DNA of 64,000 nucleotides from Bacilli bacterium (lineage in GTDB: Bacteria > Bacillota_I > Bacilli_A > JBKEDG01): positions 18-64,017 of the forward strand of contig JBKEDG010000091.1 in assembly GCA_047975285.1 (NCBI GenBank), in the 5' to 3' direction. Both the position numbers and the translations under genes were made by a program. Numbering within the stretch: position 1 is the first letter of the stretch; the number at the start of each line of letters is the position of its first letter. The notes under the pieces were generated by a model. That model had not been told where the DNA came from. It made no database searches and worked only from the letters and a program-made list of their open reading frames with translations. Positions 2 to 25,551 of this stretch are shown here, piece after piece.

Positions 2-808
2 ACTAAAAGAAATAATTACATCCTAAAATTCAATGGTAAATATGATTGCAACAAAATTATTATTATAGAAAGTGATAAAATTGAAATTTCTGAATATAAA
101 TATTATAATTTAGATTCAAGTCATGTAAATTTTTCTGTTATTGAAGGTAATGTAACATACGATTATTCTAAAGCAAAACGTTTTGAAATTGGTACATTAG
201 ATAATGATAAACAATTATCTGAATATAGAATTGCAAATATAAAAGATTCATACTCAACAGTCATTAATAAAAAACGTCGTCTTAGTTCTGATTATATTCC
301 CAAAGATCTTACTCAAATTACAGTAAAGTCTATTCACAGTGGAAACAACAATCTAATTAGATCAGATATCTTACCAAAGATTGAACAAATGTTTAAAGAT
401 GCCAGTAATAATGGGATTAATCTTGTAGTAAATTATGCATATCGCAGTTACGATTATCAAGAAAAATTATTTAATGAATACGTATCACAATACGGTTATG
501 AAACAACAATAAAAATGGCTGCCTTTGCTGGTGCAAGTGAACACCAAACAGGTCTTGTTTTAGATATTGGATCAATCGAAAGTACGAGTGCAAATTTATC
601 AGTTGAGTTTGGTTCTACAAAAGCTAGTGCTTGGTTAAAAGACAATGCTCATAATTATGGCTTTATATTACGTTTTCCAAAAGGTAAAGAAGAAATTACA
701 ACATATATTTATGAGCCTTGGCATTATAGATATGTAGGTAATGACCTTGCTAAATATATTTATGAAAATAACATTACATTAGAAGAGCTTTTTGATTTGA
801 CAAATTGA
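2..808 (+). CDS. M15B (VanY-like) D-Ala-D-Ala carboxypeptidase, 5'-truncated by the window edge
   Basis: Frame is open from nt 2 to TGA at 806-808, so the gene is longer than the ORF-track call at 389. Motifs AYRSYDYQ, SEHQTGLVLD (SxHxxGxxxD) and YEPWHYRYVG are present. Confidence 0.9.
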   Translation, partial: TKRNNYILKFNGKYDCNKIIIIESDKIEISEYKYYNLDSSHVNFSVIEGNVTYDYSKAKRFEIGTLDNDKQLSEYRIANIKDSYSTVINKKRRLSSDYIPKDLTQITVKSIHSGNNNLIRSDILPKIEQMFKDASNNGINLVVNYAYRSYDYQEKLFNEYVSQYGYETTIKMAAFAGASEHQTGLVLDIGSIESTSANLSVEFGSTKASAWLKDNAHNYGFILRFPKGKEEITTYIYEPWHYRYVGNDLAKYIYENNITLEELFDLTN

Positions 809-825
809 GAAAAATATAAAATATA

Positions 826-869
826 GCACTTTTATAGACTAAAAATTTAGTTTTAAAAGTGGTTTTTTC
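826..869 (+). terminator. Probable intrinsic terminator of the carboxypeptidase gene
   Basis: Imperfect hairpin CACTTTTA...TAAAAGTG followed by GTTTTTT. Confidence 0.6.
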
Positions 870-874
870 AAGAC

Positions 875-902
875 AAAAAAGCCATAGTTTATACTATGAC
901 TT
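875..902 (-). terminator. Intrinsic terminator after cstA and the small UGA-containing gene
   Basis: Minus strand reads AGTCATAGT-ATAA-ACTATGGCT then TTTTT, starting at the TAA at 901-903. Confidence 0.8.
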
Positions 903-1194
903 AATACATATTTACACCTTTAACATCCAAACTTTTAAAGAATAAAAACTCACTTAAATCTACGGTTACTACACCATCTTTTGTATCTAAATGTTTATAG
1001 TAGTATATATCAATATCAGACAAACAAACAAATCCGTAAAGAGATTCATTTCCCTTATCTAACTGTTTTCCCAAATAAACTTCTGGGGTCCCTGCACCAA
1101 GTCAACACCCCGTATCTTTAATATCAATTGTTATTATATCAAATCTTTTCTTTTCAATATACTCTTTTGCTTTAGGTGTTAATACAATCTCCAT
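901..1194 (-). CDS. 97-aa candidate selenoprotein with a G-C-U motif (in-frame TGA at 1102-1104); resembles HesB-like CC/Se-motif proteins
   Basis: ATG lies 2 nt after the cstA stop. Translation: MEIVLTPKAKEYIEKKRFDIITIDIKDTGC-[TGA]-LGAGTPEVYLGK...FKSLDVKGVNMY-TAA. 66 sense codons follow the TGA and end at the terminator. Confidence 0.75.
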
Positions 1195-1196
1195 AT

Positions 1197-2816
1197 TTAT
1201 GCCTTTTTAGAATTAAATAGTGCACCATATGCATACTTTATAAATATTAATGCAAGAATGAATAATCCAGTACTTAGTACAACTAAAATCATTCCTCCAC
1301 TTTCAATTCCATTGCTCATCATGGTAATAAGATTAGATTTTACTAAAAGCACAAGTGCAAACATTGTAACTAATACCATAAATACCATTGGAATAATAAT
1401 CATCTTATTATCTCTACCTGTTTGTTTTAACCATACAGCAAGAACAAGTAAAGCAAGTGCAGCTAATAATTGATTTGCAGACCCAAATATTGGCCAAACT
1501 TTTTGCCAACCAGCAACACATAGCAATCCTCCTGCTAATACTGTAATTGTAGTTGCAACATATTTATTAGATAACATTGAATCTTTATTATCAGCACCTT
1601 TTTTATTTTCAAAAAACTCTTGGAATATAAATCTTCCTAAACGTGTTGCAGTATCTAATGACGTAAGAGCAAATGCTGAAACAGAAAGTGAAATAAATGT
1701 TACACCAAATTCTTTTGGAATTCCAATTTTAGTCATAAATTCACCAACACCATCAGCAAAAATTACAGTTGGAGCAGTCCCAGTTGCAAAAGTTCCCTTA
1801 GCAACATATGAAACAGTAATCAAAGCAATAACAGCAAGTACACCCTCAATTAACATAGCACCGTATCCTACTAATTTTGCATCCTTTTCACTATTTAATT
1901 GTTTTGCAGTTGTTCCTGAACCTACTAGTGAATGGAATCCACTAATTGCCCCACATGCAACTGTTACAAATAGAATAGGGAATAAATAATTTCCATTAAT
2001 ATTAAATCCAGTATATGCTGGCAATTCAATGTCAGGTCTATAGAAAAGTAGTCCTATAATTGCTCCTGCTAACATTGCATATAATAAAAATGAATTTAAA
2101 TAATCTCTTGGTTGTAATAAAATCCAAACAGGAGTTACAGAAGCTATAAAAATATACGCTAATATAATAATTGTCCAAGTTGTTGTAGATAAATTAATAC
2201 CAAAACGTGTACCAATATAAATACTTGCAGCAACCCCAACTAAACCAATAATTGTTGCTATTAAAGAATTTACATTCAATCTATTAGTTAAATAACCAAA
2301 GATAACTGCAACAATAATAAATAGCATTGAAGTAGTAGCAACTGCTGGAATATCAATAAAAGTTCCAACAACTATAGAAATAAATGCAGCTTCAACTAAT
2401 AGAAGTGTTAACCAAGCAAAAATTGAAAATAATCTTTTCCCAGATTCACCCATTGTTGTTGAAATAATTTGTCCTATTGATTTACCATCATGTCTAAGTG
2501 AAGCAAATAACGAACCAAAATCGTGTACACCACCAAAAAAGATACTACCTACAATTATCCATAAATAAACTGGTAACCATCCAAACATCGCAGCGATAAT
2601 TGGACCAGTAATTGGACCAGCACCAGCAATTGATGCGAAGTGATGCCCTAAAACAACTCCAGCAGATGCTGGCACATAATCCACACCATCACTCTTATAA
2701 TGAGCAGGAGTTTCTCTACTTGGATCTACTCCCCACTTCTTACAAAGCCACGCTCCGTAGCTAACATATGCAACAACAAATGCTACAATTGAACCTAAAA
2801 CTAAAACTAATGACAT
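1197..2816 (-). CDS. cstA: Carbon starvation protein A (CstA family peptide/pyruvate transporter)
   Basis: Motifs TPAH..DGVDYVP, GHHFASIAGAGPITGP, LLQPRDY and ACGAISGFHSL; polytopic membrane protein; AGGAGG SD. Confidence 0.95.
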   Translation of the reverse strand: MSLVLVLGSIVAFVVAYVSYGAWLCKKWGVDPSRETPAHYKSDGVDYVPASAGVVLGHHFASIAGAGPITGPIIAAMFGWLPVYLWIIVGSIFFGGVHDFGSLFASLRHDGKSIGQIISTTMGESGKRLFSIFAWLTLLLVEAAFISIVVGTFIDIPAVATTSMLFIIVAVIFGYLTNRLNVNSLIATIIGLVGVAASIYIGTRFGINLSTTTWTIIILAYIFIASVTPVWILLQPRDYLNSFLLYAMLAGAIIGLLFYRPDIELPAYTGFNINGNYLFPILFVTVACGAISGFHSLVGSGTTAKQLNSEKDAKLVGYGAMLIEGVLAVIALITVSYVAKGTFATGTAPTVIFADGVGEFMTKIGIPKEFGVTFISLSVSAFALTSLDTATRLGRFIFQEFFENKKGADNKDSMLSNKYVATTITVLAGGLLCVAGWQKVWPIFGSANQLLAALALLVLAVWLKQTGRDNKMIIIPMVFMVLVTMFALVLLVKSNLITMMSNGIESGGMILVVLSTGLFILALIFIKYAYGALFNSKKA

Positions 2817-2840
2817 ATTATTTTCCTCCTAAATACTTTA

Positions 2841-3332
2841 CTACGACTTAAAAGCCTTTGCAATCCTTTTTGCATCCTTATTATTAATAACAGTATTATT
2901 ATTTAATGAAATCAAAATAATACCTATTGAACTCCAACCATTTAATCCAAAACTATACGATTTTTGCTTACGATACTTTTTTACAAACTTAATCGTTTCA
3001 TTATCAATTGTTGTATCACTTACAAAAACAAATGTATAATGAGTGGACATATGATTATCATCATCTCGACTTTGATTTAATAAAATCTCAACGTTCTTAT
3101 CTAATACTTCAACGATTGAATCTATTGTTATAACTTTCTCTTTTTTTATATAGATGTAACTATTATTGTTGTACGCATATACGACAACTTTTTTAGACCC
3201 CATGTATTTTGAATTTTGAACATTTGAAACAGCATACAAATCAAAAAATGTATTATTAATAATTTGATCAGATTTTATATCATAGTAGAATGACAACCTC
3301 TCTGAAACATCATCAATATAACTCACTTTCAC
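2841..3332 (-). CDS. Hypothetical protein (~163 aa)
   Basis: Long ORF; likely GTG start at 3332, 7 nt after AGGAG. No function recognised. Confidence 0.7.
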   Translation of the reverse strand: MKVSYIDDVSERLSFYYDIKSDQIINNTFFDLYAVSNVQNSKYMGSKKVVVYAYNNNSYIYIKKEKVITIDSIVEVLDKNVEILLNQSRDDDNHMSTHYTFVFVSDTTIDNETIKFVKKYRKQKSYSFGLNGWSSIGIILISLNNNTVINNKDAKRIAKAFKS

Positions 3333-3415
3333 ACACCATCTCCTTTTAATATATAATATTATAACATAAAAAGCACAAAAATGACACAAAAAAAATATTA
3401 AAGTAAAATTTCAGT

Positions 3416-3441
3416 AAAAAAAGTGCTCAATTTGAGCACTT
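3416..3441 (-). terminator. Intrinsic terminator of the dnaK operon
   Basis: AAGTGCTCA-AAT-TGAGCACTT followed by a T run, directly at the dnaJ stop. Confidence 0.85.
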
Positions 3442-4525
3442 AATTAAACATCTCTTTAAATTTTCCGAGTATACCCTGTGATGATAAGTCTGTATCACGC
3501 AATTTTTCAAACAATTTTGTTTGCTCTTTATTTAGTGCAGTTGGAGTAACTACATTAGCAATTATATACATATCTCCATAATGTGAATTATTAACATTTT
3601 TTACACCTTTATTTTTCAATTTAAACTTTGTACCACTTTGAGTTCCTTTAGGAACTTTAAGATCAACTTTACCATTAAGCGTTGGAACTTCCATTACAGT
3701 TCCAAGAGTTGCATCAGCTATATTAATTGGTAACTCCAAAAATATATCATCATTATTTCTATTAAACTTTTTACTAGGTGCAACATTAAACACTAAATAT
3801 AAATCGCCAGATGGTCCATTGTTAATACCTTCTTCACCTTTACCACTCATTCGCATCTGCGTCCCATTATCAACACCTGCTGGAATTGTTACCGTGATAG
3901 TTTTGTTCTTTCTCACTCTACCCTTGCCATGACATTTACTACAACGTTTTTCAAAAGTTTTACCTTTTCCATTACATGCTTTACAAGTTGTCTTTTGAAC
4001 AAAATTACCAAACGGAGTTCTTTGTTCAACCGTAACTTGCCCACTTCCATGACAACTGGTACATCGCTTGGAAGAAAAACCACCCTCACCATGACACTCT
4101 TCACAATTACTTTCTACAGCAATAGTCATATCTTTCTTACAACCAAATACTGCTTCTTCAAAAGTTAAATTGACTCTTTTTTCTAAATCTCTACCTTTTT
4201 GCCTAGCATTTGGGTTATGTCTACCCCCAAATCCTCCACCAAAAATATCTCCAAAAATATCTCCAAAATCAAAGTTTCCAAAATCAAATCCTCCACCTTG
4301 ATTTCCTTCAAATGCGGAATGTCCAAATTGATCATACTGGGATCTTTTTTGCGAGTCACTCAAAACAGAGTAAGCTTCTTGAGCTTCTTTAAACTTTTCT
4401 TCGGCATTATCTTCTTTGCTTACATCTGGATGATATTTTTTTGCTAACTTTCTAAAAGCACTTTTTATTTCTTTTTCATCACTAGATTTGGATACACCTA
4501 AGACTTCATAGTAATCTTTTTTCAT
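3440..4525 (-). CDS. dnaJ: Chaperone DnaJ
   Basis: J-domain with HPD, G/F-rich region and four CxxCxGxG zinc motifs. Confidence 0.98.
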
Positions 4526-23975: not shown

Positions 23976-24482
23976 TTATTTATCATTCTTACTAAATAAC
24001 TGATTAAATACATCAGTAAAATATTCCTCATTACTATTGCTGTCTTTGCTATCATAAAGTTGTGATGAGTCGTTAAACTCTCCACTCTTTAATGAAATTA
24101 TTGCTGGTACACCTTTAATATCATATTTTTCAAAGTAATGCTCAAATTCATCACTTGTAGTATTAGCATAATATATAATCTTAACTCCGTATTCTTTTGC
24201 AACTGAATCTAATATAGGCGCCGCCTCTATACAATACGGTCAAGTACTTCTTCCAAAAAATATGTATGCATCTTCCTTATTATTAATAACTTCTTCTAAT
24301 TTAATAGCATCTACTTTTACAAAAACATGGTCACTTTTAAGTTTATATCCTTCAAAGTTTATATCCTCTATTTCCTTAGAAGTTTCTTGCGGTTTTTCTT
24401 CCGACTTATCTTCACCTTTAGAACAACCTACTAATGTAAATGTTAATAACACCGCGCTCATTGCTATAATGATTTTTTTCAT
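23976..24482 (-). CDS. 168-aa thioredoxin-fold lipoprotein with a UxxC motif (in-frame TGA at 24240-24242); candidate selenoprotein
   Basis: Lipobox LVG-C20. Sequence IFFGRST-[TGA]-PYCIEAAPIL. 87 sense codons follow the TGA, including the cis-Pro motif GVPAII, to TAA at 23976. ATG is coupled to the buk stop (TAAGATG). Confidence 0.82.
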
Positions 24483-24483
24483 C

Positions 24484-25551
24484 TTAATATACCATCGCTT
24501 TCTCTTCTTCATCTAAAATTCGTAATGTTCCTTCAACTAATGCTTGCAATTCATCTTCACCTGGATAGATTAGCACTTGAGCAATAAATTTTACACGATT
24601 TTTAATCCATCCTGTCAACATATCATTATGAGCAAGACCCCCTGTAATAATAATTGCATCCACTTCTCCATAAAGACTTGCACTTACACTTGCAATTTCC
24701 TTACTTATTTGATAAGCAAGAGCTTCAAAAATAAATTTAGCTTTTTCATCTCCACTTGCAATCATTTTAGAAACTTCAAGTCCATCATTAGTTCCTAAAT
24801 GTGCAACTAACCCACCATTCCCATAGTTTTTTTTCTTTATCTCTTCAAGAGTATATTCATTTGCAAATATTGATTTATATAATTTCCCAAGTGGAACAGT
24901 TCCACTGCGTTCAGGTGACATCGGACCATCTCCATCCAAAGCGTTGTTAACATCAATAACTTCACCTTTACAATGTGCCCCAACACTGATTCCTCCTCCA
25001 AGATGTGCTACAATCAAATTCATATCATTATAATTTTTACCTATTTCTTTTGCATATCGTTTAGCGACAGCTTTTTGATTTAAAGCATGAAATAAACTAT
25101 CTCTTGGAAATTCAGGCATTCCTGTAACTTTTGCAATATCTAACATTTCATCCACTGCAACAGGATCAACAATATATGCTTCTACACCTATAGCATCAGC
25201 AATTTCTCTTGCAATCACACATCCTAAATTAGAAGCGTGTTCACCCCTTGGAGCAACCTTCACATAGTCTAGCATTGTTTTATTAACAATATAAGTACCA
25301 CTAGGAATTGGCTTAAACATACCGCCACGACCAACAATAGCACTAAGTGAGCCCAACTTTATACCTGCTTCATCTAGTTTTTGTAATATAATATTTTTTC
25401 TAAATTCATACTGATCAAATATAGTATCAAATTTTTCTAACTCCTCATTACTATGTCTTAATGTCTGTGTAAAAACACATGTTGTTTCTTCATATACCGC
25501 AATTTTCGTGGATGTTGACCCTGGATTTAAAGCTAAAATTTTTCTTTTCAT
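24484..25551 (-). CDS. buk: Butyrate (branched-chain carboxylate) kinase
   Basis: NPGSTSTK, GRGG, HASNLG, HALNQKA, AHLGGGISV and GP.SPERSG. Confidence 0.95.
   Translation of the reverse strand: MKRKILALNPGSTSTKIAVYEETTCVFTQTLRHSNEELEKFDTIFDQYEFRKNIILQKLDEAGIKLGSLSAIVGRGGMFKPIPSGTYIVNKTMLDYVKVAPRGEHASNLGCVIAREIADAIGVEAYIVDPVAVDEMLDIAKVTGMPEFPRDSLFHALNQKAVAKRYAKEIGKNYNDMNLIVAHLGGGISVGAHCKGEVIDVNNALDGDGPMSPERSGTVPLGKLYKSIFANEYTLEEIKKKNYGNGGLVAHLGTNDGLEVSKMIASGDEKAKFIFEALAYQISKEIASVSASLYGEVDAIIITGGLAHNDMLTGWIKNRVKFIAQVLIYPGEDELQALVEGTLRILDEEEKAMVY

Follow-up and report, generated by a model that had tools for sequence, protein, structure and literature searches.

The cstA locus and the gene downstream of it

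Near the start of the window, by which the whole analyzed stretch of 64,000 nucleotides is meant, the minus strand carries a gene for a short-form CstA-family transporter of 539 amino acids (cstA, 1197-2816, with its TAA at 1197-1199). The product, taken from the ORF list, was assigned by Pfam PF02554 (CstA) with an E-value of 1.2e-166, and it scored 271 bits against the NCBIfam model of the pyruvate/proton symporter CstA, far under the equivalog cut-off of 1188. Its closest relatives, 80-85% identical, came from other assemblies (P0022-P0026), and the identity to proteins of Clostridia, Spirochaetes and Negativicutes was 59-65%.

On the same strand, a frame of 97 codons (901-1194) starts with an ATG at 1194, 2 nt after the TAA of cstA, and ends with a TAA at 901-903. 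A TGT-TGA pair lies within it at 1102-1107 (TGT at 1105-1107, TGA at 1102-1104) and corresponds to Cys30-Sec31. When TGA is translated as U, the product has 97 residues, with the N-terminus MEIVLTPKAKEYIEKK and the C-terminal end ...KSLDVKGVNMY, and C30, U31 and C57 are its only Cys/Sec residues. It belongs to the NCBIfam family NF041239 and its predicted fold is IscA/HesB-like, as detailed below. A candidate SECIS-type hairpin, CCCAGA-AGUUUA-UUUGGG, follows at 1070-1087 on the minus strand, with 6 pairs, -5.5 kcal/mol and 20 nt from the UGA to the loop. An intrinsic-terminator-like hairpin with a T run (879-902, minus strand; 10 pairs and a 4-nt loop) stands directly 3' of the TAA of the small gene. 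Three terminator-like sites were found in the region 700-3500, against 0.9 expected, and none was detected there between cstA and the small frame. To judge from the 2-nt spacer, the lack of an intervening terminator and the terminator after the frame, the small gene would be transcribed together with cstA, and the spacing suggests coupled translation. The frame, Cys30-Sec31, the hairpin, the spacing and the terminator had all been correctly given in a preliminary description of this DNA, to which the strand, minus, can now be added.

The gap between the preceding gene, which ends at 808, and cstA is 388 nt, and the protein collection held just a 57-aa C-terminal piece (P0001) as its entry from this contig. 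The small gene is very probably a genuine selenoprotein gene that was truncated by gene callers.

The neighbor at 2-808, on the plus strand, is convergent with the unit formed by cstA and the small gene and uses TGA as its stop; its product, we presume, resembles a VanY-type D-Ala-D-Ala carboxypeptidase. On the other side, an ORF of 182 aa (2841-3389, minus strand) was observed 24 nt upstream of cstA and downstream of the dnaJ terminator (3441-3421), and it is possibly the first gene of the cstA transcript. No NCBIfam match was obtained for this ORF, and Pfam StiP stayed below its threshold (20.8 bits vs 28.7).

The origin of the module was also considered. Searches for cstA and for the family gene were negative in both the same-genus genome (94% complete) and the same-family genome (97% complete), and the 5 kb downstream of dnaJ in these two genomes contained no cstA, small gene, 182-aa ORF or vanY-like gene. 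The GC content of cstA is 32.6% and its GC3 is 0.13, similar to those of dnaK. A recent transfer of the module was not supported, since GC and GC3 look native.

Selenocysteine decoding and the candidate SECIS hairpin

The assembly comprises 1.53 Mb in 103 contigs, with 28.6% GC. TGA is the stop codon of 121 of the 967 ORFs of at least 200 codons, and therefore the genetic code is table 11. The genes selD, selA and selB are adjacent on contig C8, all of them over the curated cut-offs, and a tRNA-Sec was detected with 69.4 bits, where the gathering score is 47. The genome, in which TGA is otherwise a stop, thus has the components expected for a bacterial selenoprotein gene. Moreover, selA was over its cut-off in 9 of 61 related genomes, this genome being counted and the same-genus and same-family genomes being among the nine. 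Therefore, selenocysteine use is inherited in this family of organisms. In the small gene, UGA31 would be decoded as selenocysteine by SelA, SelB, SelD and tRNA-Sec, with the hairpin 20 nt past the UGA as the guiding signal.

At least five candidate selenoproteins are encoded in this 1.5-Mb genome. The candidates were hand-picked, two genome-wide scans for TGA read-through being too noisy to give a selenoproteome. The selD gene itself (C8:10375-11274, plus strand) has one in-frame TGA, which is read through in the motif C-A-N-G-G-U. A read-through gene at C103:30672-31955 (plus strand) carries the motif STUGTCTRCG, from which we take it to be grdB-like, and another at C93:40521-41057 (plus strand) carries C-D-Y-U and is presumably AhpD-like, again named from its motif. 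Additionally, an in-frame TGA gene was observed in the window at 23979-24512 on the minus strand. It encodes a lipoprotein-like thioredoxin-fold protein of 178 residues (Pfam Thioredoxin, 28.6 bits vs 23.5) with U-P-Y-C at the place of the CxxC. No hairpin was found after its UGA in a strict scan; by eye, an AGGC-GGC-GCCU stem with flanking pairs is visible about 18 nt past the UGA.

The hairpin of the small gene was compared with others past a UGA in the same genome, namely those of selD (-5.5 kcal/mol, 16 nt) and of the grdB-like gene (-5.6 kcal/mol, 18 nt), and its own values are -5.5 kcal/mol and 20 nt. Of 5000 out-of-frame TGAs taken from the long ORFs of the genome, 35 (0.7%) were followed by an equally good hairpin at this distance, as was 1 of the 121 true TGA stops. 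The hairpin lies on the codons (T)P-E-V-Y-L-G, and the GU of the Val codon is in its loop. For the family, a gapless alignment of 31 Sec-containing members over the 48 nt from the UGA yielded a SECIS with a 5-bp hairpin, CCUGC-CGUGUAU-GCAGG, that was 98.7% paired and showed changes on both sides (covariation) at three of the five pairs, while slid controls were 25-41% paired. It lies on the codons P-A-V-Y-A-G, so that the hairpins of the Sec forms of the family and of the small gene occupy the same P-x-V-Y-x-G codons, with the same terminal Gly codon. The hairpin of the small gene is 3 nt closer to the UGA, because the protein loop is one residue shorter.

Other searches for an RNA signal were negative. 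The hairpin site was not recovered with a covariance model of the 31 Clostridial SECIS, which are GC-rich; the best matches of this model in the window lay elsewhere, with E-values of 0.86 or worse, and an Rfam scan of 850-1250 gave no relevant match and two weak irrelevant ones. The minimum free energy of the 71-nt stretch past Cys30 was no better than that of shuffled sequences (z 0.22), and the corresponding fold differs from the hairpin. When the same peptide was synonymously recoded, 488 of 5000 recodings (9.8%) had an equal or better hairpin, and codon choice therefore adds little. The stem and its immediate surroundings do contain three rare codons, ACC (4%), TTG (12%) and GGG (13%).

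Family, motif and fold of the small protein

With U read as C, the small protein matched NF041239, 'CC/Se motif family (seleno)protein', with 42.1 bits (cut-off 40) over positions 1-91 of the 91 in the profile, and thus the family named in the preliminary description proved to be the right one. In a six-frame search of the genome, in which TGA is unscorable, the locus of the small gene reached 36.3 bits against this model, under the cut-off. The small protein and NF041239 (Moor_selen_rel) are alike in length (about 95 aa), in the match over the full profile and in a Gly-rich loop with Cys/Sec. The available text of a 2026 review (PMC13188914) lists the CC/Se family as a selenoprotein with the motif CxxU and names Moorella thermoacetica as the organism of its first prediction.

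A HMMER search of 1.84 billion representatives matched 20 proteins. Seventeen of them were full-length and aligned across the UGA, so that homologues do span both of its sides; two were C-terminal pieces starting just past the UGA, one of them from the same contig; and P0010, a protein of 1181 aa, aligned over a short stretch only. The family was also surveyed in 401 Clostridia-phylum genomes, a phylum sample reached via cstA loci, and was present in 102 of them. Of its 135 matches over the cut-off, 104 had one in-frame TGA, 30 had none and one had two. The CC/Se family is already known and is mostly Sec-containing. Within the phylum of the host, searches of 60 relatives and of 399 further sampled genomes gave no family member. 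Tandem paralogues of the family were observed at three Clostridia-phylum loci (L127, L133 and L145), in two cases as a Sec form beside a Cys form. We are highly confident that the gene with Cys30-Sec31 is a true Sec gene of the CC/Se family.

The C-U motif, in the context T-G-C-U-L-G, is part of the Gly-rich loop that joins strands 2 and 3, and homologues have CC, xC, UC, U, CxxU or CU at this column. Among 70 Sec-form genes, the motif was U alone in 20, UC in 17, CxxU in 16, CU in 6, UxxC in 5, UxC in 5 and CxU in 1, and in a second set C-U occurred in 2 of 34 Sec forms. The expectation of Cys or Sec at the aligned residue therefore held for the motif of the homologues except in one close relative, P0003, which has no Cys whatever at the motif; this absence argues against an obligatory redox role. 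Counted from the conserved Pro, U stands at P-7 in most family members, whereas in the small protein P-7 is occupied by C, and U is one residue nearer the Pro, at P-6. The Cys of the cstA-linked Cys forms is also at P-6. The gap placement of MAFFT can shift the motif by one column and decides whether C30 or U31 meets the most conserved column. The closest homologue, P0002 (61% identical), has 'CW' at the place of 'CU', followed by a conserved LGAG-PEVYLGKQ. To judge from the aligned sequences, this W probably stands for a TGA that was translated with table 4, and if so the Sec codon would be conserved in a second species.

Other readings of the TGA were weighed against decoding as selenocysteine. 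Under code 4, TGA would be read as tryptophan and the motif would become Cys-Trp; the low GC content, the many genomes of 0.5-1 Mb in the phylum sample and the W of P0002 would suit such a code. It was rejected, since TGA closes the 121 long ORFs counted above, and its probability is practically negligible. Moreover, this reading has to face the presence of selA, selB, selD and tRNA-Sec, the position of the selD TGA in C-A-N-G-G-U, and the fact that in the alignments W occupies this column in P0002 only, P0012 and P0020 having a W one residue past the Cys motif. It is also improbable that the gene is decaying through a recent nonsense mutation from TGT or TGC to TGA in a Cys-Cys form, which would leave a product of 30 residues. 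One base change would be enough for this, Cys is present at this place in all of the cstA-linked relatives examined at the DNA level, the SECIS covariance model and Rfam were negative, and the codon-level test was weak. However, the frame stays open past the TGA for 66 more codons that follow the family profile as far as it goes, the hairpin is correctly spaced, is on a par with those of selD and grdB and shows a null rate of 0.7%, and the genome has the full Sec machinery. In addition, the 'CW' of P0002 falls exactly where a TGA translated under table 4 would give it.

The structure predicted by AlphaFold2 from a 53-row alignment had a pLDDT of 90.6 and a pTM of 0.81, with a loop of lower confidence at about residues 27-35. 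The best match of the model in VIA-align was IscA (1x0g_C; Z 9.0, rmsd 3.0, 88 of 97 residues aligned); the ten best rows were all of IscA/SufA/HesB type (Z 5.4-9.0), and the next row had a Z of 2.7. Similarly, each of the eleven best PDB rows of Foldseek was either of IscA/SufA/HesB type or a protein labelled 'putative Fe-S biosynthesis' (TM 0.59-0.66), the best E-value, 3.2e-3, missing the 0.001 line of the tool. A profile search of PDB sequences gave no match below E 0.43. Against Pfam Fe-S_biosyn (PF01521), the small protein scored 13.2 bits (gathering score 26.3; E 0.11) over residues 1-33, and 7 of 53 family members reached this model at E<=0.01. The HesB/IscA-like character that had been noticed at the N-terminus was therefore recovered in the modelled fold, with a weak signal in Pfam.

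A-type Fe-S carriers have three cluster-binding Cys, including a C-terminal Cys-Gly-Cys. The small protein shares the fold of these IscA/SufA/HesB proteins, but their three-Cys site and the C-terminal C-G-C are absent from it and the Pfam threshold is not reached. As modelled, it is an IscA-fold protein and, by the defining residues, not an Fe-S carrier. It would be a soluble domain of IscA/HesB fold in which the C-terminal Fe-S cysteines were lost and one reactive loop, Gly-Cys-Sec-Leu-Gly, was kept. Nor did it match the HesB-like selenoprotein TIGR01911 in NCBIfam, NF041239 being the only match; the motif of TIGR01911 is given as UxGP in the available text of the review cited above (PMC13188914).

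Linkage to cstA and a possible role beside the transporter

The 80 CstA loci nearest to that of the window were collected from species-representative genomes of Clostridia, Spirochaetes, Negativicutes and Desulfovibrio (45-65% identity), and at least 300 nt of downstream sequence was available at 73 of them. A family gene was found directly downstream and on the same strand at seven of the 80 (L020, L021, L022, L023, L026, L028 and L042), in all seven cases with a single Cys (AC, SC or GC). The reverse search started from the 104 one-TGA and 30 no-TGA family matches of the Clostridia sample, and about 1.5 kb upstream of each, where the contig allowed, was searched with the CstA of the window as query. 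No CstA neighbor was found for any of the 104 Sec-form genes, and one was found for four of the 30 Cys forms over the cut-off (L105, L139, L142 and L144) and for L165, below the cut-off. The CstA beside L105 was 59% identical to that of the window, and those beside L139, L142, L144 and L165 were 34-36% identical. Since none of the 104 sampled Sec forms adjoins cstA, the small gene is the first Sec form found behind this gene.

In a tree of 53 proteins and 97 columns, with many open forks, the small protein paired with P0002 (support 99), and both fell in an 8-row clade (SH-aLRT 84) together with L101, L102, L105, P0003, P0004 and P0015; L101, L102 and L105 are the cstA-linked members of this clade. 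The thioredoxin-linked Sec forms made up a separate 21-row clade (86), and the cstA-linked L104 was placed elsewhere. The small gene would thus come from a subclade found repeatedly directly downstream of cstA. The preliminary description had proposed a two-gene module. Its synteny does recur, at 7 of 80 cstA loci, at 4 of 30 Cys forms and in two distant CstA clades, but it does not extend to the sampled Sec forms (0 of 104), and most of the family stands apart from cstA. The linkage of the family with cstA is real but confined to a clade. It was not found in the accessible papers on CstA and selenoproteins: in its available part, a 2022 preprint (bioRxiv 10.1101/2022.07.06.499078) covers DUF466 only, and the word CstA is absent from the 2026 review (PMC13188914) as available. 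A cstA-linked subclade of a known family, now in Sec form, is what is newly noticed here.

The small protein might be a real CC/Se selenoprotein without any functional tie to CstA, doing the thioredoxin-linked job of its family and merely having its transcript in common with cstA. The lack of cstA beside all 104 Sec-form genes would agree with this, as would the usual neighbors of the family, i.e. thioredoxin (at 11 of 30 loci), DsbD/CcdA, CcmH and a germination protease, and the presence of a family gene at only 7 of the 80 nearest cstA loci. Yet the same order and strand after cstA are repeated in several lineages of the small protein and with two clades of CstA (at about 60% and at about 35% identity), most of the cstA-linked proteins group together in the tree, and the 2-nt spacing points to coupled translation, so that we judge a purely incidental association unlikely. 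A functional link between the small protein and CstA is somewhat favored. Taken as a whole, the reading preferred here, with good though not full confidence, is that of a functional Sec gene of the CC/Se family that is read by the Sec system of its own genome, co-transcribed with cstA, and encodes a Cys-Sec redox accessory of CstA.

According to this preferred reading, Cys30-Sec31 would cycle between a selenol/thiol and a selenenylsulfide form, in parallel to thioredoxin reductase, and the small protein would serve CstA in the cytoplasm as a redox accessory or a regulator, in parallel to YbdD. The evidence for and against such redox cycling appears to us evenly balanced. The redox centre of mammalian thioredoxin reductase is Gly-Cys-Sec-Gly, in which Cys and Sec are likewise adjacent and flanked by Gly, and adjacent Cys-Sec can form an eight-membered selenenylsulfide ring. 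Thioredoxin reductase is, however, an unrelated protein, a flavoenzyme with the motif at its C-terminus, whereas the motif of the small protein is internal and its chemistry is conjectured from this likeness.

The second parallel comes from E. coli, where constitutive pyruvate uptake depends on CstA as well as on YbdD, a small DUF466 protein, and where the cstA/ybdD double mutant shows no stronger defect than either single mutant, according to the available part of the report (PMC5847655). The part available of the 2022 preprint (bioRxiv 10.1101/2022.07.06.499078) describes Cys-Cys C-termini in YbdD and YjiX and Cys-Sec in their Campylobacter relatives, together with the CC/KCU tails of DUF466 proteins and their CstA neighborhood. 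Like the small protein, YbdD/YjiX (DUF466, PF04328) and KCU-star (NF033934) are small and soluble, have a vicinal Cys-Cys or Cys-Sec and are encoded after a CstA-family/BtsT transporter. The motif of DUF466 is C-terminal, whereas that of the small protein is internal, in a loop of an IscA-like fold. At a limit of E<=1, neither Pfam nor NCBIfam matched the small protein to the DUF466 or KCU-star models, a search of this genome for PF04328 was negative, and a search for YbdD-like ORFs with CC tails after the 80 cstA loci gave one spurious match only. The small protein looks like an analogue of YbdD of different descent, the likeness being one of working and not of membership.

As a second, unrelated Cys-Cys/Cys-Sec partner, the small protein would offer a comparative handle on the role of YbdD with CstA, and the cstA linkage would be the first concrete functional lead for the CC/Se family besides its thioredoxin neighbors. 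A more general proposal, which we put forward tentatively and regard as doubtful, is that a small cytoplasmic partner with a dithiol or a selenol-thiol pair is a general requirement of CstA-family transporters, and that unrelated folds (DUF466 and the IscA-like CC/Se proteins) have been recruited for it. If this were true, a thiol/selenol step would be an unrecognized part of the working of CstA, either as redox gating of transport or as the handling of a substrate that reacts with thiols or carries selenium or sulfur, and among the versions of the partner the Sec form behind the cstA of the window would be the most reactive.

The neighborhoods of the Sec forms were also recorded at 30 loci (L107-L136), by scanning 78 of 113 ORFs of at least 110 aa, ORFs that overlapped the family gene or shadowed longer ORFs being left out. 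A thioredoxin-domain neighbor was present at 11 of the 30 loci, in three cases fused to a pyridine-nucleotide disulfide reductase, and DsbD/CcdA and CcmH were other recurring neighbors. Moreover, the germination protease Peptidase_A25 was observed at nine of these loci and a gene with a MoCF_biosynth domain at seven. This conserved neighborhood may point to a role of the Sec forms that is tied to spores or depends on thioredoxin.
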